A stretch of 64,000 nucleotides of DNA, taken from contig JBBRNX010000009.1 of the NCBI GenBank assembly GCA_038230035.1, positions 11,882 to 75,881 of the forward strand. Reading direction: 5' to 3'. The notes under the pieces are model-generated. The model saw only the letters and a list, made by a program, of their open reading frames with translations, was not told the origin of the DNA and searched no databases. This DNA comes from Gaiellales bacterium (GTDB taxonomy: Bacteria > Actinomycetota > Thermoleophilia > Gaiellales > Gaiellaceae). The translations under genes and the position numbers were made by a program. Positions 1,455 to 58,080 of the stretch are shown here, piece after piece. Within the stretch, counting starts at the first letter, position 1; every line of letters starts with the position of its first letter.

Positions 1455-1566
1455 GCAGCATTCCCCGGCGGCGGATTCAGCAGCACGAGCGCACGATCAT
1501 AGTCCGGTTCGCGTCGTTCGTCACGCGCGGAGGACACCTGTTTGACGCCCTCGCCGAGGACTCCTA

Positions 1567-1604
1567 GACTCATCATGTGGCCTAACCGTTTCACATGATG
1601 AGTC
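1567..1604. promoter_or_regulatory. 13-bp perfect inverted repeat, probable operator between divergent proV and iclR
   Basis: GACTCATCATGTG-N12-CACATGATGAGTC ends immediately before ATG 1605. Confidence 0.55.
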
Positions 1605-10831: not shown

Positions 10832-11249
10832 TGTAGTCGGTCAAGTACTTGATCTGGACGCTCTGTTGCGTCGAGGTGAACTTGACGAGGTCGCCGATCG
10901 AGATCATTCCGACCAGCGCGCCACCGTCGACCACCGGTACGTGGCGGATCCGGCGCTCGGTCATGAGCGCCATGCACTCGTCGATGCCGGTGTCGGGGGT
11001 AACGCAGATCACCGGAGCGGACATGATCTCGCGCACGGGCGTCCCCGCATCGTCACGTCCCTCGACAGCCGCCCGGCGCAGGTAGTCACGCTCCGTGACA
11101 ATGCCGGTTATCTCGTCGCCATCGGTGACGAGGAGCGATCCGACGTTGGCCCCGACCATCGCCTTGACAGCGTCTAGGACGGAGGCGTCGCCGCCGATCT
11201 GCAGAACCTCTCGCTGCTTCCCCTGCAGGATGTCGGCGACCGCGCTCAC
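10818..11249 (-). CDS. CBS-domain protein
   Basis: VGSLLV..GIVTERDY, RIRHVPVV..GMISIGDLVK; GTG 11249 preferred over TTG 11258. Confidence 0.9.
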   Translation of the reverse strand: MSAVADILQGKQREVLQIGGDASVLDAVKAMVGANVGSLLVTDGDEITGIVTERDYLRRAAVEGRDDAGTPVREIMSAPVICVTPDTGIDECMALMTERRIRHVPVVDGGALVGMISIGDLVKFTSTQQSVQIKYLTDYITAR

Positions 11250-11275
11250 TCGCGGCAAATGCTACATCGGCCGAG

Positions 11276-11737
11276 CTAGGCGGCGAAGGTGCCGCGGCCG
11301 CTGATCGTCGCGGCGTAGATCAGGCAGTTGCCGAGAATCGTGCGACGGTGATGCGTCAGCGTCCCGTCGAACGTGCCGCCGTTGAACGTCACGCTCACTC
11401 GGTAGGTCTGGTTCGTGCAGCGGCTGCCGCGGTTCACGACCGTGACGCTGCCTCCCGTCACGGCTCCGCCGAGCCTCACGCCGGTGCGGCCGAGAATCGA
11501 GAACGTTCCGCCGGTGACCGCGACCGTCGGACCGGTCGAGAGCGGCTCGTGGACGATATGGGTTCGCCAGACCGCCGGTAGCTGGCCACGTGCGACGCCG
11601 ACGAACGTCCCGCGAACCGAGCTGACCGGGATGATCTCGGTGCCGGTGAACGAGTCGGAGTACGTGAATGAAGCCGATGCCGTCGCCGCCAGGGGGAAGG
11701 CGACGAGCAGTACGACGGCGACGGCAAGCGACTTCAC
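11276..11737 (-). CDS. Hypothetical secreted beta-rich protein
   Basis: Signal peptide MKSLAVAVVLLVAFPLAATASA; TAGCGT -10 6 nt upstream of GTG. Confidence 0.7.
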   Translation of the reverse strand: MKSLAVAVVLLVAFPLAATASASFTYSDSFTGTEIIPVSSVRGTFVGVARGQLPAVWRTHIVHEPLSTGPTVAVTGGTFSILGRTGVRLGGAVTGGSVTVVNRGSRCTNQTYRVSVTFNGGTFDGTLTHHRRTILGNCLIYAATISGRGTFAA

Positions 11738-11795
11738 AGGGCCACGCTAATCCTGAGCTGTGAGCCCAGCGTTAGCGATCTGATTGGATTGCGGC

Positions 11796-35681: not shown

Positions 35682-38468
35682 ATGGCGACCGCAAAGACCA
35701 AGGACCCACTTTCCAGCACCCCCGCTGCACCGGCTGCAGAGGAGTACGTCAACACCGTCGTCGACGCGGAGGCGCAGGTCGCCCCACGCCGCTTCTTCAC
35801 GATCCCGGGCCGCGACCCGTTCGACGAGATCGAATGGGAGCTTCGTGACGCGCTGATCCCGGGCAAGGACGGCCCGGCGTTCGAGCAGCGAAACGTCGAG
35901 TTCCCCAAGTTCTGGTCGCAGACGGCCACCAACATCGTCGCGCAGAAGTACTTCCGCGGCCGGCTCTCCTCCCCCGAGCGCGAGCGCTCCGTGAAGCAGA
36001 TGGTCGGCCGCGTGGTCGACACGATCGGTGGCTGGGGCCGGGCGGGCGGCTACTTCGCGACCGACGACGAGGCCGAGACCTTCGAGGCCGAGCTGAAGGC
36101 GATCCTCGTCAACCAGTACGCCTCGTTCAACTCGCCGGTGTGGTTCAACGTCGGCTTCGAGGAGAAGCCTCAGTGCTCGGCGTGCTTCATCCTCTCGATC
36201 GAGGACTCGATGGACTCGATCCTCGACTGGATCCGGCGCGAGGGTGTCATCTTCCGCGGCGGCTCGGGTTCCGGTGTAAACCTTTCCCGTCTCCGTTCGT
36301 CGAAAGAGCAGCTCTCGAAGGGCGGTCACGCGTCAGGCCCGGTGAGCTTCATGCGCGGCGCCGATGCGTCGGCGGGCACGATCAAGTCGGGCGGCAAGAC
36401 GCGTCGCGCGGCGAAGATGGTCGTCCTCGACATCGACCATCCGGACGTCGAGGAGTTCATCTGGTGCAAGGCCAAGGAGGAGCGCAAGGCGCGCGTCCTC
36501 GAGCAGGCGGGCTACGACATGTCGCTCGACTCGCCCGACTGGTCGTCGATCCAGTACCAGAACGCGAACAACTCGGTGCGCGTGACGGACGCCTTCATGG
36601 AGGCCGTGGTCGAAGGCAAGGACTGGAACCTCACTGCCCGCACCGACGGCTCGGTCGTCGACACGGTCGACGCGCGCGCGTTGCTGCGCGGCATCGCAGA
36701 GGCGTCCTGGCAATGCGCCGACCCGGGTGTGCAGTACGACACGACGATCAACGCGTGGCACACCCTGCCGAACACGTCGCGCATCAACGCGTCGAACCCG
36801 TGCAGCGAGTACATGTCGATCGACGACAGCGCCTGCAACCTTGCCTCGCTCAACCTGATGAAGTTCCGCAAGGAGGACGGCGAGCTCGACGTCGAGATGC
36901 TCGAGCACGCGGTCGACGTGATGTTCCTCGCGCAGGAGATCGCGGTTGGCTACTCCTCATACCCGACGCCCGAGATCGGCCGCAACGCGGTCCGGTTCCG
37001 CCAGCTCGGCCTGGGCTACGCGAACCTCGGCGCGCTGCTGATGGCGCGGAGCTTCCCGTACGACTCAGACGGTGGCCGCGCGTACGCCGCGGCGATCACC
37101 GCTCTGATGACGGGTCGCGCCTACCGCAAGTCGGCAGAAGTCGCGAAGCGGATGGGTGCGTTCGACGGGTACCGCGAGAATGCGGCGGCGATGATCGGCG
37201 TGATCTCGAAGCACCGCGCAGCCGTCGGGAACATCGACCATGCGAACTCGGTGCCGGAGGATCTGCTCGGCGCTGCGCGGAGGTCGTGGGACGACGCGCT
37301 CAACCTCGGCGAGGTCGCCGGCTTCCGCAACGCGCAGGCGACCGTGCTCGCGCCGACCGGGACGATCAGCTTCATGATGGATTGCGACACGACCGGCGTG
37401 GAGCCCGACTTCTCGCTGGTGAAGTCGAAGAAGCTCGTCGGCGGCGGCGAGATCACGATCGTCAACAAGACGGTGCCGATGGCGCTCGAGAAGCTCGGGT
37501 ACGCGCCGGGCGAGGTCGACGACGTCGTCGCGTTCATCGACGAGCGGAACACGGTCGTCGGCGCCCCGCACCTGAAGACCGACCACTACCCGGTCTTCGA
37601 TTGCGCGATCGGCGAGCGGGCGATCCACTACATGGGTCACGTCAGGATGATGGGCGCCGTCCAGCCGTTCATCTCGGGCGCGATCTCGAAGACGGTGAAC
37701 CTGCCCGAGACATCGACGATCGACGAGGTCGGCCAGCTGCTGATCGAGGCATGGCAGCTCGGCGTCAAGGCGATCGCCATCTACCGGGACAACTGCAAGG
37801 TCGCGCAACCGCTCTCGGGCTCGAAGGACAAGAGCGAGGCTGGGCTTCTCGCCGTGGCGCTGATCCCGACCGGCGTGCTGCCGCACCCGAAGCGACGACG
37901 CGTGCCGGAGGATCGCACCGAGGTTGGCCGCAAGTTCAAGGTCGGCGAGTACGAGGGCTACATCCACGTCGGCCTGTTCGAGGACGGTACGCCCGGCGAC
38001 ATCTTCGTGGACATCGCGAAGGAGGGCACGACCCTTGCCGGCCTGATGAACTCGTTCATGATCTCCGTCTCGCTCGGCCTCCAGTACGGCGTGCCGCTAG
38101 AGGTGTACGTCTCGAAGTTCAGCCACATGCGCTTCGAGCCGTCGGGGATGACGAACGACGCCGACATCCGCGTCGCGAAGTCGATCGTCGACTACATCTT
38201 CCGCTGGATGGGCAAGAGGTTCCTGACCACCGACCAGCAGGAGGAGGCGGGCATTCTGACCGCCGAGGTGAAGGCGCGTCTCGCAGCCGCCTATGCGACG
38301 GGCGAGGCAGCCCCACCGGCAGCCGTCGAGGCGGCGCCTCCCGGCCAGACCGCGCTCTTCAACGCGTGGGAAGACGCAGTCGAGTGCGCGAAGTGCGGCG
38401 GCAGCATGGTGCGAACCGGCAGCTGCTACACCTGCCGCGACTGCGGCACCAACACCGGCTGCTCGTAG
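35682..38468 (+). CDS. nrdJ: Vitamin B12-dependent class II ribonucleotide reductase with TSCPD domain and Zn ribbon
   Basis: FNSPVWFN, QCSACFI, NPCSEY, ACNLASLNL, APTGTIS, ISKTVN, C-terminal CAKC..CYTCRDCG. Confidence 0.95.
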   Translation: MATAKTKDPLSSTPAAPAAEEYVNTVVDAEAQVAPRRFFTIPGRDPFDEIEWELRDALIPGKDGPAFEQRNVEFPKFWSQTATNIVAQKYFRGRLSSPERERSVKQMVGRVVDTIGGWGRAGGYFATDDEAETFEAELKAILVNQYASFNSPVWFNVGFEEKPQCSACFILSIEDSMDSILDWIRREGVIFRGGSGSGVNLSRLRSSKEQLSKGGHASGPVSFMRGADASAGTIKSGGKTRRAAKMVVLDIDHPDVEEFIWCKAKEERKARVLEQAGYDMSLDSPDWSSIQYQNANNSVRVTDAFMEAVVEGKDWNLTARTDGSVVDTVDARALLRGIAEASWQCADPGVQYDTTINAWHTLPNTSRINASNPCSEYMSIDDSACNLASLNLMKFRKEDGELDVEMLEHAVDVMFLAQEIAVGYSSYPTPEIGRNAVRFRQLGLGYANLGALLMARSFPYDSDGGRAYAAAITALMTGRAYRKSAEVAKRMGAFDGYRENAAAMIGVISKHRAAVGNIDHANSVPEDLLGAARRSWDDALNLGEVAGFRNAQATVLAPTGTISFMMDCDTTGVEPDFSLVKSKKLVGGGEITIVNKTVPMALEKLGYAPGEVDDVVAFIDERNTVVGAPHLKTDHYPVFDCAIGERAIHYMGHVRMMGAVQPFISGAISKTVNLPETSTIDEVGQLLIEAWQLGVKAIAIYRDNCKVAQPLSGSKDKSEAGLLAVALIPTGVLPHPKRRRVPEDRTEVGRKFKVGEYEGYIHVGLFEDGTPGDIFVDIAKEGTTLAGLMNSFMISVSLGLQYGVPLEVYVSKFSHMRFEPSGMTNDADIRVAKSIVDYIFRWMGKRFLTTDQQEEAGILTAEVKARLAAAYATGEAAPPAAVEAAPPGQTALFNAWEDAVECAKCGGSMVRTGSCYTCRDCGTNTGCS

Positions 38469-42872: not shown

Positions 42873-43424
42873 ATGGAACACCTCGACCTTGCGACGCTCA
42901 ACGCCTCGCGCGACCGGATCCTTGCGTCGCCGAAAGACGACGGACGCGTCGAGTTGATCGTGCGCCGGCCTGCGGTCGAGGAGCGCGAAACCGTCACTGA
43001 GGCGACGCTCGACACAGTCGAAGGACTCGTTGGCGACTGCTGGCGCGCCCGCGGGTCGAGCAGCGCGCCCGACGGCTCGGCGAATCCGAAGGCGCAGCTC
43101 ACGCTGATGAACGCCCGGGTCGCCGCCCTCGTCGCCGTGAACCCGGAGCGCATCCCGCTCGCCGGCGACCAGTTTTTCGTCGACTTCGACCTGACCGCCG
43201 CGAACGTTCCGCCTGGCACGCGCCTGGCGCTCGGCTCGGCAGTCATCGAGGTCAGCGACGACCCTCATATGGGCTGCCGCAAGTTCTTCGACCGATTCGG
43301 CAACGATGCGCACCGCTTCGTGAACTCCAAAGAGGATCGCGCGCTCAACCTCCGCGGCATCAACGCGTTCGTCGTCACCGGCGGCACGGTCCGCGCCGGC
43401 GACACCATCCGCAAGACCAGCTAG
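42873..43424 (+). CDS. MOSC-domain protein
   Basis: GLVGD, QLTLMN, AGDQFFVDFDL, PHMGCRKF, LRGINA, GTVRAGD. Confidence 0.85.
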   Translation: MEHLDLATLNASRDRILASPKDDGRVELIVRRPAVEERETVTEATLDTVEGLVGDCWRARGSSSAPDGSANPKAQLTLMNARVAALVAVNPERIPLAGDQFFVDFDLTAANVPPGTRLALGSAVIEVSDDPHMGCRKFFDRFGNDAHRFVNSKEDRALNLRGINAFVVTGGTVRAGDTIRKTS

Positions 43425-44443
43425 CGGCGGCGGAGCGAGGCGTCTTCGAGCGACGGCGGCGTGTAGCCGGCATCGGCGGCGTTGAAGATCGTCCCGGGTG
43501 GGACGATCTCGTCGATCCGGTCGAGGATCTCGGTGCTCAGGACGACGCCCTGCGCACCGAGGTGGCTCTCGAGCTGCTCCATCGTGCGGGGGCCGACGAT
43601 CGCCGCGGTCACGGCTGGGTGGTTCATGACGAACGCAAGCGCGAGATGTACGAGCGGGATCCCCGACTCGTCGGCGAGCGCGCCCAGCGCGTCGGAAGCC
43701 TCGAACTTGCGCTGGTTGTCGGCCAGCGACATGTCGAAACGCTCCGGGATGCGCGTCGCACGACTCGACTCCGGCAGATCGCGCCCCTTCCGGTAGCCGC
43801 CGCTGAGCCAGCCGCCTGCCAGCGGGCTCCAGGGGATGACGCCCATCCCATACTGCTCGCACACGGGCAGCACGTTACGCTCGATCCCGCGCACGAGCAG
43901 CGAGTATGGCGGCTGCTCGCAGACGAACCGCTCGCGGCCACGCCGTTCGGCGACCCACTGCGCCTCGACGATCTCGTGGGCCGGGAACGTCGACGAGCCG
44001 ATGTAGCGCACCTTGCCCGAGCGGACGAGATCGGTGAGCGCGCCGAGCGTCTCGTCGATGTCCGTTCCCGGCTCGGGCCGGTGGATCTGGTAGAGGTCGA
44101 TCCAGTCGGTGCCGAGTCGGCGCAGGCTCGCCTCGACCTCCTTGACGATCCAGCGGCGGGAGTTGCCCCGCTCGTTGAGGCTGTCGCCCATCGTGCCGTG
44201 CACCTTCGTCGCAAGGATCACGTCGTCGCGCCGACCGAGGAGCGCTTTGCCCACGATCTCCTCCGACTCGCCGCGCGCGTAGACATCCGCCGTGTCGATG
44301 AAGTTGATCCCCGCGTCGAGCGCGCGGTGGATGATGCGGATCGAATCGTCGTGATCCGTGTTACCCCACGCGCCGAACATCATCGCGCCGAGACAGAGCG
44401 GCGAGACCATGACGCCGGTGCGACCGAGCGGGCGAAGCTCCAC
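43421..44443 (-). CDS. Aldo/keto reductase
   Basis: LCLGAMMFG, GINFIDTADVY, LRRLGTDWIDLYQIH, PWSPLAGG. Confidence 0.92.
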   Translation of the reverse strand: MELRPLGRTGVMVSPLCLGAMMFGAWGNTDHDDSIRIIHRALDAGINFIDTADVYARGESEEIVGKALLGRRDDVILATKVHGTMGDSLNERGNSRRWIVKEVEASLRRLGTDWIDLYQIHRPEPGTDIDETLGALTDLVRSGKVRYIGSSTFPAHEIVEAQWVAERRGRERFVCEQPPYSLLVRGIERNVLPVCEQYGMGVIPWSPLAGGWLSGGYRKGRDLPESSRATRIPERFDMSLADNQRKFEASDALGALADESGIPLVHLALAFVMNHPAVTAAIVGPRTMEQLESHLGAQGVVLSTEILDRIDEIVPPGTIFNAADAGYTPPSLEDASLRRR

Positions 44444-47479: not shown

Positions 47480-48421
47480 TCAGCTGAAGATCGCGAGCGG
47501 CAGCAGCGCGCTCACGACGTACTGACCGGCATCGACGATCTCCGAGATCTTCAGGTCGACGCAGAGGCTCGACAGCACGTACGCATCCTCCGGCGTGAGG
47601 TCGTAGCGGTCACCGAGCTGCACGATCATCGCCCGTACGGCGTCCTGCGCGGCCACGTAGAGATCGGGGCCGACACCTGTCGTGCCGTAGAAACCCGCGC
47701 CGTCGACCCGTCGCGTCAGCGCGCCGGACGTCTGGAACTGCGGTGCTGGAATCGTCTTCCCCTTCTGGAGCGTGAAGCGCAGGGTCGCGCCCATCGGGGT
47801 CTCGATCCCGGTGACGCAGACCTCGCCGTCGCCCTGCGCTGCGTGGGCATCACCGCAGCTGAATAGCGCACCCTCGACTTGCACCGGCAGGCACAGCGTC
47901 GTCCCGCGAACGAGCTGGCGCGTGTCCATGTTGCCGCCGAACGTTCCGGGCGGCATGACGGGCTGCTCGCTCGCGCCTGCCGGGCAGACACCCATCGTGC
48001 CGAGGAACGGCTCGATCGGGATCGCGATGTCGTCGCGCAGGTACGTCACGTCGCCGCGGGTGAGGTCGAAGATACGGAGATGCGGATCCGTAAAGTCATC
48101 GGGAAGCAACCCGAGGCCGGGGATGATGGCGGCCCAACCCCAGTCTCGGGTTCTCAAGTCGAGTATCTCCACGGCGAGCGTGTCCCCCGGTGCCGCGCCT
48201 TCGACGTAGATCGGCCCGGCGAGTGGGTAGTAGCGGGCCGCGTCGACAGTCGCAAGAGCAGCTGCGTTCGATTCCGGCGTGATCTGGTTGTCGCTGACTT
48301 CACGCGTCTCGAGCGTGACCGTGTCGCCGCTCTCGATCATCAGAGCCGGCTCGTGGCCGACGTCCCAGGTGAAATGCACGAGCTCCGGCGCGAGCTCGTG
48401 CGTCGCGTCAGACAGCGTCAC
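47480..48421 (-). CDS. Acetamidase/formamidase family protein
   Basis: LAGPIYVEGAAPGDTLAVEI, PFLGTMGV, FGGNMD, GDAHAAQGDGEV, VDLKISEIVD. Confidence 0.9.
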   Translation of the reverse strand: MTLSDATHELAPELVHFTWDVGHEPALMIESGDTVTLETREVSDNQITPESNAAALATVDAARYYPLAGPIYVEGAAPGDTLAVEILDLRTRDWGWAAIIPGLGLLPDDFTDPHLRIFDLTRGDVTYLRDDIAIPIEPFLGTMGVCPAGASEQPVMPPGTFGGNMDTRQLVRGTTLCLPVQVEGALFSCGDAHAAQGDGEVCVTGIETPMGATLRFTLQKGKTIPAPQFQTSGALTRRVDGAGFYGTTGVGPDLYVAAQDAVRAMIVQLGDRYDLTPEDAYVLSSLCVDLKISEIVDAGQYVVSALLPLAIFS

Positions 48422-49436
48422 TCGATTTCTTCCAAAGGTTCAGCGCCCCATCGGTGGCGTAGCGGTCGATCTCGTCGAGCTCGTCCGATGTGAAGTTGAG
48501 GCGCGAAAGCGCGCCGACGTTCGCCTCCAGCTGGGCGACGCTGGAAGCACCGGCGAGCGTCGAGGTCATCCGCGAGTCCCGCAGCGTCCACGCGAGCGCG
48601 AGCTGCGCGAGGCTTTGGCCGCGTCCTTGCGCGATCTCGTTCAGCGCGCGGATCTTCGCGAGCGTCTCGTCCGTGAGTAGCTCCGGCGAGAGCGACCCTG
48701 GCCTGCTGGCGCGCGATCCCTCCGGGATCCCGTCGAGGTAGCGATCGGTCAGCATCCCCTGCGCGAGCGGTGAGAAGCCGATGCAGCCGACACCGAGCTC
48801 ACCGAGCGCGTCGAGCAGCTCCGGCTCGATCCAGCGGTTCAGCATCGAGTACGACGGCTGGTGGATGACGAGCGGCGTGCCGAGCCCGCGCAGGATCGCA
48901 GCAGCCTCGCGGGTCATCTCCGCGGAGTACGACGAGATCCCGACGTACAGCGCCTTCCCCTGCCGCACGACGGTGTCGAGCGCGCCCATCGTCTCCTCGA
49001 GCGGCGTGTCCGGGTCGAAACGGTGCGAGTAGAAGATGTCGACGTAGTCGAGCCCCATCCGCGCGAGGCTTTGGTCGAGGCTCGCGATCAGGTACTTACG
49101 CGACCCCCACTCGCCATACGGACCTGGCCACATGTCGTACCCGGCCTTCGTCGAGACGATCAGCTCGTCCCGGTACGGCCCAAGGTCTTCACGCAGCAGG
49201 CGGCCGAAGTTCTCCTCTGCCGAGCCGTACGGCGGGCCGTAGTTGTTCGCGAGATCGAAATGCGTGATGCCGAGATCGAATGCCCGCCGGACGATCGCGC
49301 GGCACGTCTCGAACTCGACCTCGTTCCCGAAGTTCTGCCACAGACCAAGCGTCAGCGCGGGCAGCTGGAGGCCGCTCCGCCCGCTGCGCCGGTAGGGCAT
49401 GCTGGCGTAGCGGTCGTCGGCTGCGACGTAGCTCAT
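48408..49436 (-). CDS. L-glyceraldehyde 3-phosphate reductase-like AKR (Gpr/YghZ family)
   Basis: LGLWQNFG, ITHFDLANNYGPPYGSAEE, KAGYDMWPGPYGEWGSRKY. Confidence 0.92.
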   Translation of the reverse strand: MSYVAADDRYASMPYRRSGRSGLQLPALTLGLWQNFGNEVEFETCRAIVRRAFDLGITHFDLANNYGPPYGSAEENFGRLLREDLGPYRDELIVSTKAGYDMWPGPYGEWGSRKYLIASLDQSLARMGLDYVDIFYSHRFDPDTPLEETMGALDTVVRQGKALYVGISSYSAEMTREAAAILRGLGTPLVIHQPSYSMLNRWIEPELLDALGELGVGCIGFSPLAQGMLTDRYLDGIPEGSRASRPGSLSPELLTDETLAKIRALNEIAQGRGQSLAQLALAWTLRDSRMTSTLAGASSVAQLEANVGALSRLNFTSDELDEIDRYATDGALNLWKKSSDAV

Positions 49437-49513: not shown

Positions 49514-51307
49514 GTGATTCGCACGCTTGCCGTTCTGGCCGTCGTCGCAGCTGGGTTGACCGCCGCCGTCACCGCCTCGTCTGCGCCCCAGCGACGCACC
49601 GACGCGTGCGGCGTGGCCGACGCGGCGCCGCTCTGGGTCGACTACGGCGAAGGCCCAGTCAAGCCCGATACGCGCAAGGTGCTGGCCCGCCCGGGTGTCG
49701 TCGTCGCGACGAGCGGAACGGCGATCCCCGCCTACTTCCGCAAGCAGGGCGCTACGACGACGTACATGGTGCTCGGCCTGCCGAAGCTCGTCGGGCAGCC
49801 ATCGGCTCCCGCCGACCCCACGACTATGCCGGCCGTCGCCGACGCGCTCTATACGAAGGCAGCAGCCTCGAGCGCGTGTGCGACACCTTGGATCACGCTC
49901 AACGAGCTGTTCGGATCGTCGCTCCCGACACCGTGGTCGACCACGAACGCGACATACCGCGCCAACATCCTCGCCCTGATGCAGGGTCTTGCAGCGCACG
50001 GCGCACATCCGTTGCTCTTCGTCAACGGCAGCCCGAGCTTTGCCGGCGACGCCGCGTCGTGGTGGCAGCAGATCGGCCAGGCCGGCTCGATCGCATACGA
50101 GGCGTACTTCGACGCGCGCAAGATCTCGACGCTCGGCTCTCTCCTCGGGAACCGCCGCGTTCGCCTCGGGATGCGCAAGGCGCTCGCGCCCTTCCTTGCG
50201 GTCGGCATCCCGCCGGCACGACTCGGGCTCGTGCTCGGCTTCCATTCGGGACTGATCGCGGGCGCCGGCGGACGCCAGGGTCTGCAGCCGCGCGAGGCGT
50301 GGCTCCGTGTCGTCAAGTGGCAGACGCTTGCCGCCCGCCAGGTCGCGGCGGACCTGCACCTCGGCTCGGTCTGGGCCTGGGGTTGGGGCACGTTCGGTGC
50401 GGGAAGCGTCGACGCAGACAAGCCCGCAGCCGCCTGCGTCTCTCTGTGGGCGCGCAACCAGACATTGTGCGACGCGCCGGCCGTCGGAGGCGCCGGGTTC
50501 AACGTCTCCCTGACCGAGGGGCAGATCGTGCTGCCACGCGGTGTTGCCTGCAATCTCTACCACTCGCGCCGGATCCTCTCGACCGACATCACCCGGCTCG
50601 CAGCGTTCACCGGCGATCGAGGCTCGGCCCTCGACACGCTGTTCGGACGCATCGTCTTTCGCTCGCGGCTGCAGGTCGGCAACGACCAGGTGCTCGCGGT
50701 CGAGCAGCAGTCGATCGATCGCGATTTCGGTGGTGACCGCAACGCCTATCTGGCTGCTCTCACCCAAGTCCATGCGACGCTCGCGTCCGCACGCAACCTC
50801 ATCCGTGACGAGCTGAAGCGACGTTCGATCCCGGCGATCCTCGCCGCGGCCGGCAGCATTCAAACCCCGTATGACTGGCAGGCCGGCATCCTGACCGGGG
50901 AGGCGCGCACGATGATCTGCCTCCGCGACGAGCTTCCCGGTGGCGGCGACATCCGAGTCGACGACAACCGCTATGTCCCGATCGTCCCCCTTCTCGCAAA
51001 GCTGCCGTTCTTGTTCGACGACACCACTCCGCCGGCTGCGCCGTTGGCAAGCGCAGCCCCCGCCGGCAAGACCGTCCAACTCATGTGGCGCGCCCCGATC
51101 GACGCAGACGTCGCCGGCTTCGAGGTCTTCCGCGCGAAGGCACCGGGCGGGCCGTACACCATGCTCAACGCGAGACTCGTCATCCTCGAGAGCTTCACCG
51201 ACGCAACCGCCCCGCCCGGCATTCCGTCGTATTACGTCATCCGCGCGGTGGACACCTCGGGCAACGAGAGCGGCCCCTCACCCGAGCTGTCCGCGACGCC
51301 GAGCTAG
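49514..51307 (+). CDS. Large secreted hypothetical protein with C-terminal FN3-like domain
   Basis: Signal peptide; C-terminal LMW..DVAGFEVFR..FTD..YYVIRAVDTSGNES; TAGCGT -10 6 nt upstream. Confidence 0.72.
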   Translation: MIRTLAVLAVVAAGLTAAVTASSAPQRRTDACGVADAAPLWVDYGEGPVKPDTRKVLARPGVVVATSGTAIPAYFRKQGATTTYMVLGLPKLVGQPSAPADPTTMPAVADALYTKAAASSACATPWITLNELFGSSLPTPWSTTNATYRANILALMQGLAAHGAHPLLFVNGSPSFAGDAASWWQQIGQAGSIAYEAYFDARKISTLGSLLGNRRVRLGMRKALAPFLAVGIPPARLGLVLGFHSGLIAGAGGRQGLQPREAWLRVVKWQTLAARQVAADLHLGSVWAWGWGTFGAGSVDADKPAAACVSLWARNQTLCDAPAVGGAGFNVSLTEGQIVLPRGVACNLYHSRRILSTDITRLAAFTGDRGSALDTLFGRIVFRSRLQVGNDQVLAVEQQSIDRDFGGDRNAYLAALTQVHATLASARNLIRDELKRRSIPAILAAAGSIQTPYDWQAGILTGEARTMICLRDELPGGGDIRVDDNRYVPIVPLLAKLPFLFDDTTPPAAPLASAAPAGKTVQLMWRAPIDADVAGFEVFRAKAPGGPYTMLNARLVILESFTDATAPPGIPSYYVIRAVDTSGNESGPSPELSATPS

Positions 51308-51651
51308 CCGCGCAGGTAGGCGTCGTCGCCGCGCACCCAGTCCTCGCGCACCGGCGAGAAGACGTCGAGCGCGATCGAATCCTCGAGGGCCTCGATCTCG
51401 TGCGGCACGTTTCCTGGAATCAGCACCGTCGAACCGGCCGAGACGATCTGCTCCTCGTCACCGATGACGAAGCGAAGGCGCCCTTCGAGCACATTCGTGA
51501 CCTGTTCGTTCGGATGCTCGTGGCGCGGTACGAAAGCGCCCTGCGCGAGGATGATCCGCGCAACCGTCATCGTCGCCGTGTGGGCCATCTGCCGCCCGAC
51601 GAGCGGATTGAGCTGCTCGACCGGCCAATCGCTCCAAGCGTGGACATCCAT
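51304..51651 (-). CDS. Cupin-domain protein
   Basis: PRHEHPNEQ..EGRLRF, IPGNVPHE, DVFSPVREDW. Confidence 0.9.
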   Translation of the reverse strand: MDVHAWSDWPVEQLNPLVGRQMAHTATMTVARIILAQGAFVPRHEHPNEQVTNVLEGRLRFVIGDEEQIVSAGSTVLIPGNVPHEIEALEDSIALDVFSPVREDWVRGDDAYLRG

Positions 51652-52421
51652 ACGCTGATCCTAAACCTCGCCGGGATCGACTCCAGCGGGTCGGGACGAA
51701 AACGCGCGAGAACGCGAGCGGCAACGCAACCGACCAGCACGACTGACCCGTCGATGACCGCGTAGCCGGCCGCGATAGCCGACGGTGGGTTACCGGACGA
51801 AATATGCGTCCATGGCGCGTGCGCCGCCCAAGCCCAATCCCCGGCCCAGGTTCCCACCACCTCGATCGTCATCGTGGCGACCCAGATCGCCGCGAACAGG
51901 TCGCCGCGCCCAGAGAACAGAATGCACCACGCGAAGAGCGGCAGCAGAAGCAGCCCTTGGACATCGAGCCGCCCCGTCAGCGGCTGGAGCACCGTGACGC
52001 CCGCGACCGTCCACATCGTGCAGACCGCAAGCACCGTATGGCGCACACGCCGGCCGTGTCGCTGCACCACGGGCAGCGTTGCGGCGGTGATCCCGAAGAG
52101 ATAGACGAGTGCGTGCCCGGGAGGGACGTAGAGAGGGATGTTGTGGAGTCGATAGGTGTAGCCGCCCCAGACGAGCGAGCCGATCGCCTCGAACCCGGTT
52201 GCGATCGGGACGCACAGCCATAGCTGCAGCCGCTGGAGTCCCTCGACGCGATGCGAGAGAGCGAACAGCACGCCGGATGCAACGACGCCGAGGGCAAGCT
52301 GCGGCCCGAGCCCGCCGAGCATCCCGTCCGCTACGAGCATCACCACCGTGAACGCGAGCAGGAACACGTGCATCCGGTACGGCCTCATCGCCTGCATGAC
52401 GCCCTCAGTCCACTCGCGCAC
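51567..52421 (-). CDS. Hypothetical polytopic membrane protein (3' end overlaps the cupin gene)
   Basis: Several TM segments; YRLHNIPLYVPPGH, EVVGT..GDWAW, GNPPS; the true 3' end is uncertain. Confidence 0.65.
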   Translation of the reverse strand: MREWTEGVMQAMRPYRMHVFLLAFTVVMLVADGMLGGLGPQLALGVVASGVLFALSHRVEGLQRLQLWLCVPIATGFEAIGSLVWGGYTYRLHNIPLYVPPGHALVYLFGITAATLPVVQRHGRRVRHTVLAVCTMWTVAGVTVLQPLTGRLDVQGLLLLPLFAWCILFSGRGDLFAAIWVATMTIEVVGTWAGDWAWAAHAPWTHISSGNPPSAIAAGYAVIDGSVVLVGCVAARVLARFRPDPLESIPARFRISVWMSTLGAIGRSSSSIRSSGGRWPTRRR

Positions 52422-52430
52422 GCCTAGCGC

Positions 52431-52646
52431 CTAGACCCGCGGTTTGCGCGCGAGCCAGAAGCGGAGGAAGTAGAACGGCACGATTATGCCGGCGGCGAGA
52501 AACGCGCCAACCCCCCACGCCGTTGCATGCTGGCTCCCGTGCTTGTTCGCGTGGTTGAAGACCCCAATTGAGATGCACGCGGCGATCGCCACAGCGATGA
52601 CGAAGGTGACAGGATTCGGCAGGGCGGCGGCCACGCCGTCCAGCAT
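52431..52646 (-). CDS. Small membrane protein
   Basis: 71 aa, two TM helices, basic C-terminus. Confidence 0.55.
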   Translation of the reverse strand: MLDGVAAALPNPVTFVIAVAIAACISIGVFNHANKHGSQHATAWGVGAFLAAGIIVPFYFLRFWLARKPRV

Positions 52647-52651
52647 CGCAG

Positions 52652-52999
52652 CTAGCCGTCGTTGTCGTCGCGCGTCAGAGAGCCGAAGCCGATATGAATC
52701 GCTGCGACGTACGCTCCGCCCGGTCTCTCGAGGAGTTGCTGCTTAACCTGCGGGCCTGGCGGAGGACCGGCGGTTCCCACCTGGCTCCGCAGCGCGTCAA
52801 TGCGGTCATGCAGCTCACGGCGCCGCTGCGACACCTCCTTCTCCTCCGCTTCGAGCTTGGCGAGGCGGTCGAGGCTGTCCTCGTCCTGCGCGCCGGTACC
52901 ACGGATGAAGTCGATCCGCTCGTGCACGCGTCGACGACGCTGCGACACCGCGCGCTCCTCCTGTTCGAGACGGGCCAGATCGCGGACCGTATCCGCCAT
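52652..52999 (-). CDS. RsiG-like coiled-coil protein with two c-di-GMP-type motifs
   Basis: E15-x3-S19-x2-R22-x3-H26-x3-D30 and E53-x3-S57-x2-R60-x3-H64-x3-D68. Confidence 0.65.
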   Translation of the reverse strand: MADTVRDLARLEQEERAVSQRRRRVHERIDFIRGTGAQDEDSLDRLAKLEAEEKEVSQRRRELHDRIDALRSQVGTAGPPPGPQVKQQLLERPGGAYVAAIHIGFGSLTRDDNDG

Positions 53000-53043
53000 G
53001 GTCTGGCTATCGACAGTCCGCCGTCACAGTTGACCCGCACGCA

Positions 53044-54594
53044 TTAGCCCGCGGCCGGGTGCTCTTCTGCGAGCCAGCCGAGCCGGATCGCAGATGCCAC
53101 GGCCTGAGTACGCGAGCGCGCGTCGAGCTTCGCCATCGAGCGGCGAACGTGGGTTTGAACCGTTTCCTCCGCAACGCCGAGCTCGACGCCGACCTCGGCG
53201 CTGGTCTTCCCGTGTGCCAGCAGACCGAGAACCTCACGCTCGCGTGGACTCAGAGAGCCGGCGAGCGGATGCCGCGAGCGAAACTCCTCCGCCTCGAGCT
53301 CACGCCGCTTGCGCTCGTCGATGTCGAGGATCTGCGCGACGGAGTACGCAGGCGTCCCGTCGTCGTCCCTGACGAGAGAGACACTGAGATGGATCCACAC
53401 CACACTCCGGTCCTTGCGGACGTAGCGCTTCTCCATCTGGTACGAACTGAACTCGCCTGCACGAAGCCGCACGCCGAGCGCCAGATCGGGAGCGAGATCG
53501 TCAGGGTGGGTGACGTCGTGAAACCGCATGGTCAGAAGCTCGCCGGCCGTGTAGCCGACGAGTTCGCAGAGAGCATCGTTGACCTTTAGCCAGCGTCCCT
53601 CGGGCGACGCGAGAGCCATGCCGATCGGCGCCGCCTCGAAGGCGCCGCGGAAGCGCTCCTCGCTCTCGCGCAGCGCCCGTTCCGACCGCCGGTGCTCGCG
53701 GAGGTCGCGGATCAGCGCATGAATGCCGACCACCTCGTCACCGTCGCGCAAGACGGTCGCCGTCACCTCGACCGGTATGCGGTTACCGGCAAAGTCGACC
53801 ACGACGTACTCGTAATGGCTCGTCACCTGTTCTCCTCGGAGCTTCGCCTCCACGCTGTTCTTGATCACGTCCGCCCACTCGGGCGCTGCGAAGTCGTTGG
53901 GGCTCAGGCCAATCAGCTCGTCGACCGTGCAACCGAGCAGACGGCAGGCAGCAGCGTTGGCGTCGGTGATGTGCGCCATCGCGTCAACAATGAAAACCGC
54001 ATCGCTCGACGCCTCGAAGAACAAACGCTGACGGGCGTGCGCAGCTTGGATGAGCTCGTTCGCCCGTGCGCGCTCGATCATCCTGACCAGTTGGACGCCG
54101 ACGGTCTGCAGCACCTCGAGAAGGTCGGGATCGGAGCCAATTGGAGTCGTTGAGTAGAACCCCATAACCGCGACGACCTGTTTCCCGACCCGTACAGGAA
54201 CGGCAATCGCACTCTGTAGACCTGCGGCGACAGCATCAGCGGCGGTCGTCAGCGTCGGATCGGCGCCGAGATCTTCGACGATTGACGGCTCGCCGGTCGA
54301 GAGCACGCGATCTATAAGGACATCGGTACTCACCGCTTCCTCCAACCCCGCTCGCAGCCTTGCTAGCCGACGCGCGTCGTCGACATGCCACGCGTGGTGC
54401 GAGGTGATGCCATCAGCAGAGACGAGGCACGCCTGTCCGACAGGCCACCCAGTGAAGTGGCAGATCTCTACCAGGGCGCGCGGGAGCGGCGCGTCGTCGA
54501 CATCGGTTGCGTCGTTCGTGATCGCGGCGATGACGGCGAGAAGGTGGAGCAGGCGGGCTGGCGACTGTGTCGCAGCGCTCCGTTGTTCGTGCAT
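53044..54594 (-). CDS. GAF-PAS-PAS-LuxR one-component regulator
   Basis: GAF (SAIAVPV..VAVMGFYS), two PAS (FFEASSDAVF; FEAAPIGMA..EKRYVRKD), LuxR LSPREREVL..TVQTHVRRSMAKL; GAAGGAG SD before ATG 54594. Confidence 0.87.
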   Translation of the reverse strand: MHEQRSAATQSPARLLHLLAVIAAITNDATDVDDAPLPRALVEICHFTGWPVGQACLVSADGITSHHAWHVDDARRLARLRAGLEEAVSTDVLIDRVLSTGEPSIVEDLGADPTLTTAADAVAAGLQSAIAVPVRVGKQVVAVMGFYSTTPIGSDPDLLEVLQTVGVQLVRMIERARANELIQAAHARQRLFFEASSDAVFIVDAMAHITDANAAACRLLGCTVDELIGLSPNDFAAPEWADVIKNSVEAKLRGEQVTSHYEYVVVDFAGNRIPVEVTATVLRDGDEVVGIHALIRDLREHRRSERALRESEERFRGAFEAAPIGMALASPEGRWLKVNDALCELVGYTAGELLTMRFHDVTHPDDLAPDLALGVRLRAGEFSSYQMEKRYVRKDRSVVWIHLSVSLVRDDDGTPAYSVAQILDIDERKRRELEAEEFRSRHPLAGSLSPREREVLGLLAHGKTSAEVGVELGVAEETVQTHVRRSMAKLDARSRTQAVASAIRLGWLAEEHPAAG

Positions 54595-54671
54595 GTCGTG
54601 CTCCTTCGGCTGGGATGTCCCCTGTTCCGGTGACAAGTGAGGGGATCGGCGGCCCCGGGTGTAACGGGAAT

Positions 54672-54771: not shown

Positions 54772-55143
54772 ATGACCCTTGTACGCAGACCCAGCCGCAC
54801 GCTGATCGTCGCACTGATCGCAGTCGCGATCGGTGCCGGCGTGTACGCCTACGCGGCGACGAACACGGTGCCGGGCAGCACGGCCGGCTCCGGCTCCGGC
54901 ACGATCAGCGGTTACACGGTGAGCAGCATCGCGTACACGCTGAACTCCACCACGCCGACGAACCTCGACTCGGTGGCGTTCACGATCGCTCCGGCTGCAG
55001 CGAGCACAGTGAAGGTTCAGCTCGCAGCCGCCGGCTCCTGGTACAGCTGCACCAACACGACGGGCAGCGTCACCTGCGCCACGACGTCGCCCCAGGCGAC
55101 GGCAGTTGCCGCGACACAGCTCACGGTCGTCGCAGCGCAGTAG
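54772..55143 (+). CDS. Small secreted Thr/Ser/Ala-rich protein (TasA/pilin-like SipW substrate candidate)
   Basis: AAGGAG SD; hydrophobic leader ending GVYAYAATNTVPGS; two Cys near the C-terminus. Confidence 0.72.
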   Translation: MTLVRRPSRTLIVALIAVAIGAGVYAYAATNTVPGSTAGSGSGTISGYTVSSIAYTLNSTTPTNLDSVAFTIAPAAASTVKVQLAAAGSWYSCTNTTGSVTCATTSPQATAVAATQLTVVAAQ

Positions 55144-55145
55144 GC

Positions 55146-55706
55146 ATGTCCACGGTCGTCGCACCGGCCACGTTCGACGAATCGGCGGCGCGCTCATTGA
55201 GCGCGCCGCCGAACTCGTCTGCTCGCCGACGGTTCGCCCGGACGCGGATGGCTCTCTCGATCGCTCTCGCTGCGGCGGCCTTCGCGGCTACCTGGTGGTA
55301 CGTTGCGCCGCCGCCGCTCGGCGGTTCGACCACCGTTGTCACGGTCGATGGCACCAGCATGCTCCCGAAGCTCCGGCTGTCCGATCTGGTCGCTCTTCGC
55401 CCGCAACACACGTATCGCGTAGGCGACGTCGTCGGCTACCGAAGCGGGCTAATCCATCGCGTCGTCCTGCACCGGATCGTCGCAATCCATGGTGGTCGCT
55501 ACGTGTTCAAGGGCGACAACAACTCCTTTGTCGACCCTGACCGGCCGACGCGATCGCAGCTCGTCGGGCGCCTCTGGATTCACATCCCGTCCGCCGGTCG
55601 GCTCGTCCTGCAGCTCCACCGACCGCCTGTCGCGGCGACGCTCGCCGTACTGCTCGTACTCGTGGCCGGCCTGGGCGGCGGCACGAAGCGACGCCGCTCG
55701 AGCTAG
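55146..55706 (+). CDS. Signal peptidase I, SipW/ER-type (S26B)
   Basis: GTSMLP (Ser), VLHRIV (His), FKGDNN..D; TM segments on both sides. Confidence 0.85.
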   Translation: MSTVVAPATFDESAARSLSAPPNSSARRRFARTRMALSIALAAAAFAATWWYVAPPPLGGSTTVVTVDGTSMLPKLRLSDLVALRPQHTYRVGDVVGYRSGLIHRVVLHRIVAIHGGRYVFKGDNNSFVDPDRPTRSQLVGRLWIHIPSAGRLVLQLHRPPVAATLAVLLVLVAGLGGGTKRRRSS

Positions 55707-55715
55707 GCCATAACG

Positions 55716-56099
55716 ATGGCCAGATGTCTCTTTCGGCTCGTACTCGGGATCAGCGCGCTGGTGTTCTGCTTCGCAGGCCCGGCCCTGAGCGCGAGCAATG
55801 CGGTGCCTGGCACCACGGTCACCCGCTTCGTGACGACGATCACCGCGGACAAGCTGAAGCCGTCCAGCTGCTCTGCCATCACGCTGGCAACGGTAGTAGC
55901 CGGCAGCACGGGAACGGCAGGCAACGACCTCCTGCTCGGGTCCGCCGCTGCAAACACGATGAGCGGCGCCGGGGGCAACGACTGCATCCTCGGCGGCGGC
56001 GGCAACGACGCGATCAGCTGCGGCGCCGGCACGGACGTCGCAATCGGCGGCCCTGGCACCGACACGTTCAACGCCGACTGCGAGACGCAGATCCAGTAG
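55716..56099 (+). CDS. Secreted protein with RTX-like Ca-binding GGxGxD repeats
   Basis: Leader ending ALSASNAVPGT; GTAGND, GAGGND, GGGGND, GAGTD, GGPGTD repeats. Confidence 0.75.
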   Translation: MARCLFRLVLGISALVFCFAGPALSASNAVPGTTVTRFVTTITADKLKPSSCSAITLATVVAGSTGTAGNDLLLGSAAANTMSGAGGNDCILGGGGNDAISCGAGTDVAIGGPGTDTFNADCETQIQ

Positions 56100-56105
56100 C
56101 GGAAG

Positions 56106-57059
56106 CTAGCGCTCGTACCTGACGACGTCTTGAACCGCGTCGTCGATCGCTGCGAGCGTCCTCGCGTCGAGATGCAGCCCTGACGCAACCGCGTTCTCGT
56201 CGAGCTGCTCGGGCCGGCTGACACCGACGATTGCCGAGGCGACGTTCGGCTCCCGCAGCACCCAGGCGAGCGCAAGCTGTGACAGCCGGATGCCGAGATC
56301 GTCCGCGATCGGCCTCAGCCGGTCGACCGCAGCCAGCACGTCGTCGGAGAGGTAGCGCCCGATCGCCCAGCCCATCTTCTCCGAGCTCGCCCGCGTACCC
56401 GCCGGCGGGGCATCACCGGCGCGGTACTTGCCGGTAAGCACGCCTTGAGCGAGCGGCGACCAGACGATCTGCGAGATGCCGTTTGCGGCGCAGACGTCGA
56501 TTACGCCGCGCTCGGGTGCGCGGTGGAGGATCGAGTACTCGGGTTGGCTCGAGACGAACTTCTCGCTTCCCGGCACGTCGAGCGACGCCTGGATCTGCGA
56601 CGGCGTCCATTCGCTGAAGCCGACGTAGCGCACCTTCCCGACGCGGACTGCAGCGGTGAGCGCTTCCATCGTCTCCTTGAGCGGCGTGTCCGAGTCGTAC
56701 CGATGGCATTGGTAGAGATCGACATGGTCGGTGCGGAGTCGGGCGAGCGACGCGTCGAGCTGCTTTTCGACCTGTTTCCGGGACAGCCCGCGGTCGGTGT
56801 CGGACATCGGGAAGTAGAGCTTCGTCGCGAGGACGTACGAGTCGCGCGGCCTCGTGGCAAGGAGCTCTCCGAGGAGCTCCTCCGCCGCACCGCGGTTGTA
56901 GACGTTCGCCGTGTCGATGAAGTTGATGCCGAGGTCGAACGCGCGGTCGACGATCGCCCGCGCCGTGCCGCCGTCGATCCCGCCGCCGAGGGTGAGCCAC
57001 GAGCCGAGGGCGATCTCCGAAACGACGAGATCACTCGAACCGAGGCGGCGATACTGCAT
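56106..57059 (-). CDS. Aldo/keto reductase (K-channel beta-subunit-like)
   Basis: IALGSWLT, GINFIDTANVY, WSPLAQGVLTGKY. Confidence 0.92.
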   Translation of the reverse strand: MQYRRLGSSDLVVSEIALGSWLTLGGGIDGGTARAIVDRAFDLGINFIDTANVYNRGAAEELLGELLATRPRDSYVLATKLYFPMSDTDRGLSRKQVEKQLDASLARLRTDHVDLYQCHRYDSDTPLKETMEALTAAVRVGKVRYVGFSEWTPSQIQASLDVPGSEKFVSSQPEYSILHRAPERGVIDVCAANGISQIVWSPLAQGVLTGKYRAGDAPPAGTRASSEKMGWAIGRYLSDDVLAAVDRLRPIADDLGIRLSQLALAWVLREPNVASAIVGVSRPEQLDENAVASGLHLDARTLAAIDDAVQDVVRYER

Positions 57060-57105: not shown

Positions 57106-58080
57106 GTGGAGAGGCGAGGACTCGGCGGCAGCGGGATCGAGGTTACGCGGATCGTCCTCGGTTGCGGCAACTTCGGCGGCGTCGGCTCCTCGCCGACGTT
57201 CTTCGGGCAGGGAATCGCGAAGGACGAGGCGTTCCGGATCATGGATGCGGCCTGGGATCTCGGCGTTCGCGCGTTCGACACCGCCGACGCCTACGGAGGC
57301 GGCCACAGCGAGACCTGGATCGGCGAGTGGCTCCAGACGAAGAGCAACGCCGTCCGGGACGAGCTCGCAATCGAGACGAAGACCTTCAACCCCATGGACG
57401 CCGGACACGATCGCGGCCTCTCACGCTCTCGGATCCTGAGGCAGATCGACACGAGCCTCGCCCGACTCGGGGTCGAGCGGGTCGCGCTCTATATGACGCA
57501 CGCCTTCGACTCCGATGTGCGGCAGGAGGAGACGCTGCGCGCCTTCGACTCGCTCGTGCGCGCGGGCAAGGTCGGCGCGATCGGCGCCTCGAACTTCACT
57601 GCTGAGCAGCTCGCCGAGGCGCTCGAGATCTCGCAGCTCGAGGGACTCGCGCGCTACGAGTGGGTGCAGAACTCGTACTCGCTGCTCGACCAGGACGATC
57701 GGCAGACCGTTTTCCCGGTGTTGCGAGCGCATGGGCTCGGCTACGTCCCGTTCGGCCCGCTGGCGGGTGGCTGGCTGACAGGCAAGTACCGGCGCGGCGA
57801 GGCGTTCCCAGCGGGTTCGCGGATGACCCAGCGGCCGGAAGGCTATGCGGAGTACGTGAACGAGCAGGTCTTCGGCGCACTCGAGAGCCTGGAGGCGGAG
57901 GCGGCCGACCGGGGAGTGTCCATGGCCGGACTCGCGCTCGCCTGGCTCCTCGCCCAGCCAGAGGTCACAGGCATCGTGGTCGGCCCGGGCCGCGCCGAGC
58001 ATCTCGCGCCCGCCGTCGAGGCGCTCGGGCTGAATCTGACGAGTGCAGACGTGTCCCGACTGATGGAGGTATTTGCGTGA
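57106..58080 (+). CDS. Aldo/keto reductase
   Basis: LGCGNFGG, FDTADAYGGG, PFGPLAGGWLTGKY. Confidence 0.9.
   Translation: MERRGLGGSGIEVTRIVLGCGNFGGVGSSPTFFGQGIAKDEAFRIMDAAWDLGVRAFDTADAYGGGHSETWIGEWLQTKSNAVRDELAIETKTFNPMDAGHDRGLSRSRILRQIDTSLARLGVERVALYMTHAFDSDVRQEETLRAFDSLVRAGKVGAIGASNFTAEQLAEALEISQLEGLARYEWVQNSYSLLDQDDRQTVFPVLRAHGLGYVPFGPLAGGWLTGKYRRGEAFPAGSRMTQRPEGYAEYVNEQVFGALESLEAEAADRGVSMAGLALAWLLAQPEVTGIVVGPGRAEHLAPAVEALGLNLTSADVSRLMEVFA

Follow-up and report, generated by a model that had tools for sequence, protein, structure and literature searches.

The 64,000-nucleotide (nt) stretch of a Gaiellales contig analysed here (JBBRNX010000009.1; hereafter the window) encodes on its minus strand, at 52652..52999, a 115-amino-acid (aa) protein that very probably belongs to the RsiG family. 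To our knowledge, RsiG and its sigma factor WhiG form the only known sigma/anti-sigma pair controlled by cyclic di-guanosine monophosphate (c-di-GMP). The protein carries both copies of the RsiG ligand motif on a predicted bare hairpin with a four-residue turn, which would constitute a third RsiG architecture, and its gene is preceded by a conserved promoter-like element of the sigma-28/WhiG type. On balance, we lean towards reading it as a c-di-GMP receptor and anti-sigma-28 factor subject to negative feedback.

The RsiG-like gene and its predicted hairpin

The open reading frame (ORF) at 52652..52999 starts with ATG, comprises 115 codons plus stop and specifies the product MADTVRDLARLEQEERAVSQRRRRVHERIDFIRGTGAQDEDSLDRLAKLEAEEKEVSQRRRELHDRIDALRSQVGTAGPPPGPQVKQQLLERPGGAYVAAIHIGFGSLTRDDNDG. 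It is a genuine gene, because substitutions among five orthologues pile up on the third positions of the minus-strand frame, with a ratio of 116:119:319 for codon positions 1:2:3 over the first 75 codons. It is scarcely conceivable that the ORF arose by chance in GC-rich DNA or that the true gene is the antisense ORF at 52694..53047 (plus strand). The latter encodes 117 aa, has a GC content at third codon positions (GC3) of 0.80 and is preferred over the RsiG-like gene by a naive GC3 caller; set against this are the third-position excess in the minus frame, the conserved family with its Pfam match and the promoter-like element kept at the minus-strand start. We rejected the antisense ORF on the codon-position pattern, as an antisense artefact of GC-rich DNA. 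Among public sequencing runs, the locus is contained in a sediment metagenome and in no RNA run.

As the sequence-only reading of this locus had noted, two exact copies of E-x3-S-x2-R-x3-H-x3-D sit on two predicted helices joined by a short acidic linker. Motif 1 (E15-x3-S19-x2-R22-x3-H26-x3-D30; 52910..52957, minus strand) lies on helix 1, and motif 2 (E53-x3-S57-x2-R60-x3-H64-x3-D68; 52796..52843, minus strand) on helix 2. In all six reading frames of the window, the strict pattern E...S..R...[QH]...D has just two occurrences, both of them within this ORF, against a chance level of 0.07 per window (mean of 30 mononucleotide shuffles). AlphaFold2 (AF2), supplied with 29 homologues, predicts helices at residues 2-35 (52895..52996) and 40-75 (52775..52882) with a predicted local distance difference test score (pLDDT) above 90, the values per 10-residue block of helix 1 being 76-96. 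The turn between them comprises residues 36-39, GAQD (52883..52894), inside the linker GTGAQDEDS. Residues 76-115 (52655..52774) form a Gly/Pro-rich connector and a C-terminal tail, for which AF2 confidence is low and a single short helix (95-102) is predicted. The tail is conserved in the close clade only, where the alignment of close homologues shows the segment K-E-R-L-L-E-x-P-G-x-A-Y-V-A-A-M-Q-x-G-F-G-S-L, and not across the wider hairpin family. By analogy with the flexible C-terminal extension of the Rubrobacter radiotolerans protein RsiG-Rr (PMC8325347), it may serve in sigma binding.

The hydrophobic core of helix 1 consists of L8, L11, V18, V25 (Leu in 88% of the family), I29 and I32, and that of helix 2 (L46, L49, V56, L63, I67 and L70) repeats it at an offset of 38 residues. 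With the turn at 36-39, the core layers would pair as 8/67, 11/63, 18/56, 25/49 and 29/46, placing a pseudo-twofold at V18/V56, beside S19/S57. An antiparallel coiled coil of the motif helices is thus predicted by the AF2 hairpin and by the mirrored core positions together. Because both cores mirror around V18/V56, the modelled hairpin looks like a covalently linked antiparallel homodimer of single-motif RsiG helices. This putative geometry agrees qualitatively with the published description of RsiG ligand reading, in which two Arg read the central guanines and two Asp the splayed outer guanines of a c-di-GMP dimer.

Family, distribution and internal duplication

The protein matches the Pfam family RsiG-like (PF22802) in two stretches and scores 44.2 bits (cutoff 27; E 1.6e-11); no NCBIfam model fits it. 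In a single-sequence search of the PDB, the best match was the single-motif RsiG of R. radiotolerans (7lq2/7lq3/7lq4; E 0.008, to helix 2). A profile built from 103 hairpin relatives matched RsiG/AmfC of Streptomyces venezuelae (6pfj/6pfv) with E 4.7e-7 in two stretches that correspond to its helices alpha1 and alpha5, and also RsiG-Rr (7lq2) with E about 5e-6. Together with the AF2 hairpin, these matches bear out the RsiG-like identity that had been proposed from the letters of the window.

A word-indexed search returned 45 close homologues of 106-132 aa and 53-88% identity, all from metagenomes or metagenome-assembled genomes (MAGs), and a precomputed PF22802 match is present in 45/45. When 1.84 billion cluster representatives were searched exhaustively with a profile, 413 clusters (50% identity) matched at E <= 1e-3, 103 of them at E <= 1e-10. 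Among the best 149 of the 413 clusters, the median length is 100 aa, two motifs are present in 107, and the motifs stand 38 residues apart in 52 and 39 apart in 27. At the stacking positions, 89 of the 107 two-motif representatives have His/His, 11 have Gln/His, five His/Gln and two Gln/Gln, and some members of the family are bare hairpins of 71-78 aa that lack extensions for sigma contacts. Since His/His, a spacing of 38-39 and two motifs prevail among the best clusters, the short-linker twin-motif His/His hairpin is, judged by these counts, the standard form of a large family and not a peculiarity of the window gene. Among 103 aligned, diverse hairpin representatives, conservation is highest at the motif positions, with E15, S19 and R22 invariant and His (88%) or Gln (12%) at position 26; these representatives were picked for two loose motifs, so part of this conservation arises by construction.

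Two features that the sequence-only reading had singled out appear in a different light against this background. His does replace Gln in both motifs, but this is no anomaly, because the Gln of motif 1 in twin-motif RsiGs is 'frequently replaced by a histidine', which can make the same stacking contact (PMC8325347), and because His is the rule in the hairpin family. Likewise, the small size is real but not singular, being ordinary within the short-hairpin branch, and there only.

Relatives with an organism label come only from MAGs called Gaiellales (an order in the class Thermoleophilia), Gaiellaceae, Gaiella sp. or 'Actinomycetes bacterium'. Scanning genome contigs with the family alignment gave at least two loci, low-complexity patterns crowding the matches, and scanning metagenome contigs with a trimmed alignment gave seven. 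Database labels already recognise part of the family: such hairpins bear the Pfam RsiG-like tag, and JGI calls two of them 'anti-sigma-K factor RsiG'. One Gaiella sp. locus (L009 10001-10471) encodes a twin-motif protein of the long-linker form (P0049, HEY7344172.1; 156 aa, spacing 85, His in both motifs), directly followed by genes for an FHA-domain protein (10468-10923) and a MerR/Rv1828-type regulator (10946-11638). Therefore, the Thermoleophilia hold long-linker as well as short-hairpin twin-motif forms. On a 1.07-Mb contig of a Gaiellales MAG (L021; JAXLSV010000002.1), two RsiG-like hairpin genes stand in tandem (9670-9957 and 10001-10363), and the family is therefore multi-copy within one genome. 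A divergent pair of hairpin genes (1370-1645, minus strand, and 1751-2053, plus strand) occurs in L024 amid many small unannotated ORFs, and a D5_N/DUF5906 primase-helicase gene (11191-12053) adjoins the region of the pair; by its gene content, this region may represent a prophage or other mobile element that bears hairpins resembling c-di-GMP receptors.

To trace the origin of the two helices, we compared identities outside the motif residues. Helices 1 of different proteins share an identity of 0.39 and helices 2 of 0.36, compared with 0.31-0.32 between helix 1 and helix 2 and 0.29-0.33 between either helix and alpha1 or alpha5 of the long-linker forms. Because helices in like positions resemble each other more closely than helix 1 resembles helix 2, the sequences point to one old duplication, older than the radiation of the hairpin family and common to all of it. 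Neither hairpin helix is preferentially closer to alpha1 or to alpha5 of the long-linker forms in these comparisons of short units. The two units of the window gene are 59% identical in protein and 61% in DNA, third codon positions agree in only 41%, and a DNA-level search of the gene detected no repeat; the low third-position agreement and the missing DNA repeat rule out a recent duplication or gene conversion.

The promoter-like element and the gene neighbourhood

The sigma-28/WhiG-type promoter-like element, TCAA-N15-GTCGATAG (53007..53033, minus strand), lies directly upstream of the RsiG-like gene, with 7 nt between its end and the ATG. In the orthologous loci L001, L002, L004/5 and L008, the block GTCAACTGTG...GTCGATAA is conserved together with the 7 nt and the ATG, while the remaining intergenic DNA around it is not alignable. 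The elements lie at 3785-3811 in L001, 9967-9993 in L002 and in L004, and 4399-4425 in L008, and the pattern T[CA]AA-N14-16-G[CT]CGATA[AG] has no further occurrence in the window or in the 12 loci. The window element fits the WhiG2 consensus T(A/C)AA-N16-GCCGATAA, the most conserved part of which, the central CGA (PMC12871210), is intact. It has three mismatches to the older published sigma-28 consensus TAAA/GCCGATAA, and a search of the window for this strict consensus with up to two mismatches gave no match; the element is nevertheless the only intergenic, correctly placed site of the sigma-28 type in the window. Housekeeping promoters of actinobacteria usually have a TANNNT -10 sequence, a form that the -10 of this element does not fit.

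Across the RsiG-like genes, a broader form, TCAA-N15/16-[GT][CT]CGATA[ACG], recurs 7-8 nt before the start codon, also at 9967-9992 in L011 and 9635-9661 in L021. It reads TCAA-N15-TCCGATAC in L011/12 and TCAA-N16-GCCGATAC at the first gene of L021 (both 7 nt to GTG), TCAA-N15-TCCGATCT at the second gene of L021 (8 nt to GTG), each gene of this tandem pair thus having its own element, and TCAA-N16-TCCGATAA at the second gene of L024 (8 nt to ATG). L015 and L022/23 carry GCCGATAA and GACGATAG, respectively, both 7 nt from ATG and with a poor -35. A -10 core CGAT[AC] at 7-8 nt before the start is found in six of ten independent hairpin lineages, against about 1.5% expected per site (rough binomial tail 2e-9, for a pattern and test window defined after seeing the data). 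In the P0040/P0050 clade (L006/L007 10001-10393; L013, L014, L018 and L019), GT(C/T)CACAC replaces the CGATA -10. The longer annotated N-terminus in this clade is probably a miscalled start, and the neighbours of the gene in L006/L007 encode a PAS-HisKA-receiver hybrid kinase and a prepilin-type N_methyl protein.

Because the element ends 7 nt before the start codon, its position predicts a leaderless or near-leaderless mRNA. The element would tie the RsiG-like gene to a WhiG-type regulon, without saying which WhiG, and it suggests feedback by the sigma factor on its own antagonist. A limited check of the RsiG/WhiG literature found no description of such a loop for RsiG.

The genes on the minus strand follow one another closely. 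The stop codon of a GAF-PAS-PAS-LuxR (GerE) regulator gene (53044..54597; Pfam and NCBIfam) stands 44 nt ahead of the RsiG-like ATG. A gene for a 71-aa protein with two transmembrane (TM) segments (52431..52646) begins 5 nt after the RsiG-like stop and is probably co-transcribed with it; this protein has no Pfam or NCBIfam family and is 69-72% identical to ORFs downstream of the orthologues in L004 and L008. The probable operon continues with a membrane protein of about 276-284 aa, likewise without a Pfam or NCBIfam family (51567..52421; position conserved in L003, L004, L006 and L008), and ends with a Cupin_2 protein (51304..51651; Pfam E 1.9e-14), whose position is conserved in orthologous loci. 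This order recurs in orthologous loci, with changes upstream of the RsiG-like gene: the LuxR gene adjoins it in the window, L001 and L002, is separated from it by a DUF421 gene in L004 and L008, is replaced by a hybrid kinase in L006 and is absent in L011, L021 and L022.

Genes for sigma-70-family, GGDEF, EAL or HD-GYP proteins were not found among the approximately 50 ORFs scanned across the window, and Rfam and tRNA scans of the window found nothing, including no c-di-GMP riboswitch. Near relatives, a GAF-HD-GGDEF gene lies 1 kb from the orthologue in L008, and a PAS-GGDEF-EAL gene (L021 11901-14249) lies 1.5 kb from the tandem hairpin pair. The sequence-only reading was thus correct that no sigma gene adjoins the RsiG-like gene in the window; this is normal and not an anomaly, however, because in S. 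venezuelae about 1.5 Mb separate rsiG and whiG (PMC7005675). Accordingly, three of the four features it had stressed (His for Gln, no adjacent sigma gene and minimal size) are ordinary for the family.

An operon of three genes (54772-56099, plus strand) runs divergently from the LuxR gene. Its products are a 123-aa secreted-looking protein without a family, a signal peptidase I of the archaeal/SipW type (TIGR02228; 53.8 bits, cutoff 51.85) and a 127-aa protein that bears RTX calcium-binding repeats; L004/L005 have the same three genes. The hairpin gene does stand beside the PAS-LuxR gene that faces this SipW operon, but the further suggestion that this position hints at c-di-GMP control of surface structures found no support: the sole well-placed sigma-28-type promoter precedes the RsiG-like gene, and a DUF421 gene can part the LuxR gene from the RsiG-like gene in orthologous loci. 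With no promoter of this type ahead of the SipW operon, we rejected a sigma-28 link to it.

Further afield, a 15-kb span around the locus contains four paralogous aldo/keto reductase genes (43421-44443, 48408-49436, 56106-57059 and 57106-58080), an enrichment that L004 and L008 share in their orthologous neighbourhoods. The plus strand encodes, at 35682-38468, a B12-dependent (class II) ribonucleotide reductase that includes a TSCPD domain. Its 90%-identity cluster includes a copy on the 86.8-kb contig that bears the orthologue P0014, which supports synteny between the two MAGs. At 2042-9136 (plus strand), a cluster for corrinoid-dependent methyl transfer comprises a B12-binding protein, MTHFR, a pterin-binding enzyme, a RACo-type corrinoid activator that has a 2Fe-2S domain, and an MttB-family methyltransferase (639 bits).

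Proposed mechanism and comparison with known systems

We propose that the protein acts as a monomeric minimal RsiG, made up of an antiparallel hairpin of about 75 residues with one motif per helix and a flexible tail of about 40 residues. Its motifs make it likely that the hairpin binds c-di-GMP: in a c-di-GMP dimer, the central guanines would be read by the Arg pair and the splayed-out ones by the Asp pair, with the His pair stacking on the bases. Once loaded, the hairpin would bind a sigma-28 (WhiG-family) factor, produced from a gene elsewhere in the genome, and keep it inactive. Since a conserved sigma-28/WhiG-type promoter precedes the RsiG-like gene, this same sigma would drive the synthesis of its own c-di-GMP-dependent antagonist, along with the three downstream genes, closing a negative feedback loop. 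Our confidence thus falls from family membership to ligand binding to the full model; these gradings are judgements, not computed values. In line with the model, WhiG homologues exist in three other Thermoleophilia species and bind their single-motif RsiGs (PMC8325347), and we count in its favour the c-di-GMP enzyme genes near the relatives in L008 and L021. A search for a Gaiellales WhiG with residues 47-274 of the S. venezuelae protein (WhiG-Sv), read from a PDB alignment obtained with Escherichia coli FliA, gave at least 120 matches, and those listed all came from Streptomyces or close relatives. In WhiG-Sv, the K-x3-G-R contacts to c-di-GMP are K57, G61 and R62.

Several observations weigh against this model. 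No sigma-70-family gene was found in about 15 distinct homologue neighbourhoods, and the hairpin has neither the N-terminal helix nor the long alpha2-alpha4 loop, which in solved complexes provide the contacts to WhiG and the shielding of c-di-GMP. The tandem or multiple paralogues of L021 and L024 fit poorly with one anti-sigma per sigma. The promoter-like element, whose pattern was fixed only in hindsight, is missing in the P0040 clade, L009, L016 and L017. Finally, a Foldseek search of the AF2 model against the PDB retrieved no RsiG, only generic helical hairpins (designed proteins, Kif21A and the seryl-tRNA synthetase arm), an outcome that is uninformative either way because the fold has just two helices.

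It is possible, if doubtful, that the hairpin serves as a general small c-di-GMP receptor or adaptor and that, in place of a WhiG2-type sigma, its partner is the GAF-PAS-PAS-LuxR regulator, the co-transcribed membrane proteins or the flagellar-type sigma WhiG1, for which the anti-sigma partner in Actinomycetota is stated to be unidentified (PMC12871210). Such a role would suit a family with several copies per genome, sometimes in tandem (L021, L024), with very varied neighbourhoods and with bare members of 71-78 aa. The LuxR gene that adjoins the hairpin gene in three loci encodes a helix-turn-helix that also scores on Sigma70_r4 models, the GerE helix-turn-helix being related to sigma region 4, and the downstream two-TM gene is conserved. 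Yet the LuxR adjacency is lost elsewhere (L004/L008, L006 and L011/L021/L022), WhiG sigmas are the only experimentally known partners of the RsiG fold, and the sigma-28-type promoter links the gene to a WhiG-family regulon, though not to a particular WhiG. We are somewhat more sceptical of a broader version, in which the hairpins would represent a large overlooked class of minimal c-di-GMP receptors in uncultured Thermoleophilia, multi-copy, read from leaderless sigma-28-type promoters and in part paired with partners other than WhiG2; these might be WhiG1 or, through their sigma-4-like domain, LuxR-type regulators, and members may sometimes lie in tandem and sometimes in a D5-type primase region, possibly on a mobile element.

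More radically, the protein might be a structural coiled-coil hairpin that keeps the RsiG-like pattern and has lost c-di-GMP binding, for instance if the double Gln-to-His exchange or the short linker has altered the pocket. His occupies both stacking positions where the published logo has it frequent in motif 1 only, the shielding loop is absent and the fold search gave generic hairpins. Nonetheless, all ten motif residues are strongly conserved over hundreds of clusters, with only Gln or His as the stacking residue, which makes a non-binding hairpin unlikely; moreover, the authors of the RsiG survey deemed His suitable for the same stacking contact, and loop-less single-motif RsiGs do bind c-di-GMP (PMC8325347). 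The negatively autoregulated anti-sigma-28 factor thus remains the reading towards which we lean.

The published history of RsiG rests on 135 homologues from cultured reference genomes, of which 130 are twin-motif and five single-motif proteins, the latter found only in Rubrobacteria and Thermoleophilia. In this account, the homodimer with one motif per chain is the ancestral state, from which an intragenic duplication produced the twin-motif monomer that was 'inherited elsewhere' (PMC8325347). Twin-motif hairpins, abundant in uncultured relatives of Gaiellales and hence in a class said to hold single-motif forms only, would mean that the duplication is older than proposed or took place more than once. 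The literature that we searched holds no paper on 'RsiG-like' proteins, on RsiG in Thermoleophilia beyond the 2021 study or on Gaiellales and c-di-GMP, and within it the short-hairpin architecture is undescribed. New relative to this literature are the short twin-motif hairpin itself, its abundance and multiplicity in uncultured Thermoleophilia-like bacteria, and the conserved WhiG-type promoter-like element with its predicted leaderless start, which predicts a feedback loop on the RsiG-like gene. The basic mechanism known for RsiG is unchanged by these findings, whose value is evolutionary and practical rather than conceptual.

Outside the RsiG family, the proposed logic is shared by FlgM, a small, partly disordered sigma-28 antagonist whose gene, in enteric flagellar regulation, is read from a sigma-28-type promoter. 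FlgM has no sequence or fold relation to the hairpin, however, and is controlled by secretion instead of c-di-GMP (PMC12871210). The long-linker protein of Gaiella sp. (HEY7344172.1) shares with the hairpin the order of origin, the PF22802 match and His in both motifs; in contrast, its motifs are 85 residues apart, each of its repeats keeps a full single-motif unit, FHA and MerR genes follow it, and it has no clear sigma-28-type promoter.

RsiG of S. venezuelae (RsiG-Sv, also AmfC; 6pfj/6pfv) likewise belongs to PF22802, bears two motifs on an antiparallel coiled coil within one chain and is encoded apart from its sigma gene. It is a 24-kDa protein (PMC7005675), compared with 115 aa for the hairpin, and its motifs are spaced by about 85-100 residues (about 98 in 6pfj chain numbering) instead of 38. 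The long linker alpha2-alpha4 and the c-di-GMP-shielding loop of RsiG-Sv have no counterpart in the hairpin, which has a four-residue turn in their place. RsiG-Sv further devotes stretches at its N and C termini to sigma regions 2 and 4, whereas the hairpin begins its helix at residue 2 and offers only a C-terminal tail; the stacking residues are Gln at both positions in RsiG-Sv and His at both in the hairpin. The sigma-28-type promoter and the origin in Thermoleophilia-like uncultured bacteria also set the hairpin gene apart.

The solved protein closest in sequence is RsiG-Rr (7lq2/7lq3/7lq4; PMC8325347). Both proteins are small, lack the shielding loop, come from a basal actinobacterial lineage and have a Gly-rich connector leading to a flexible C-terminal extension that contains Leu and Glu; such flexible extensions fold on WhiG (PMC8325347). 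RsiG-Rr also has an N-terminal helix that wraps around sigma region 2, which the hairpin lacks, and Gln where the hairpin has His. The main difference is that RsiG-Rr carries one motif per chain and requires a homodimer, whereas the hairpin carries two motifs per chain and would need no dimerisation, because a short turn joins its helices. As the simplest possible fused form of the ancestral dimer, the hairpin would be a handy minimal model in which to study the binding of a c-di-GMP dimer by two helices.

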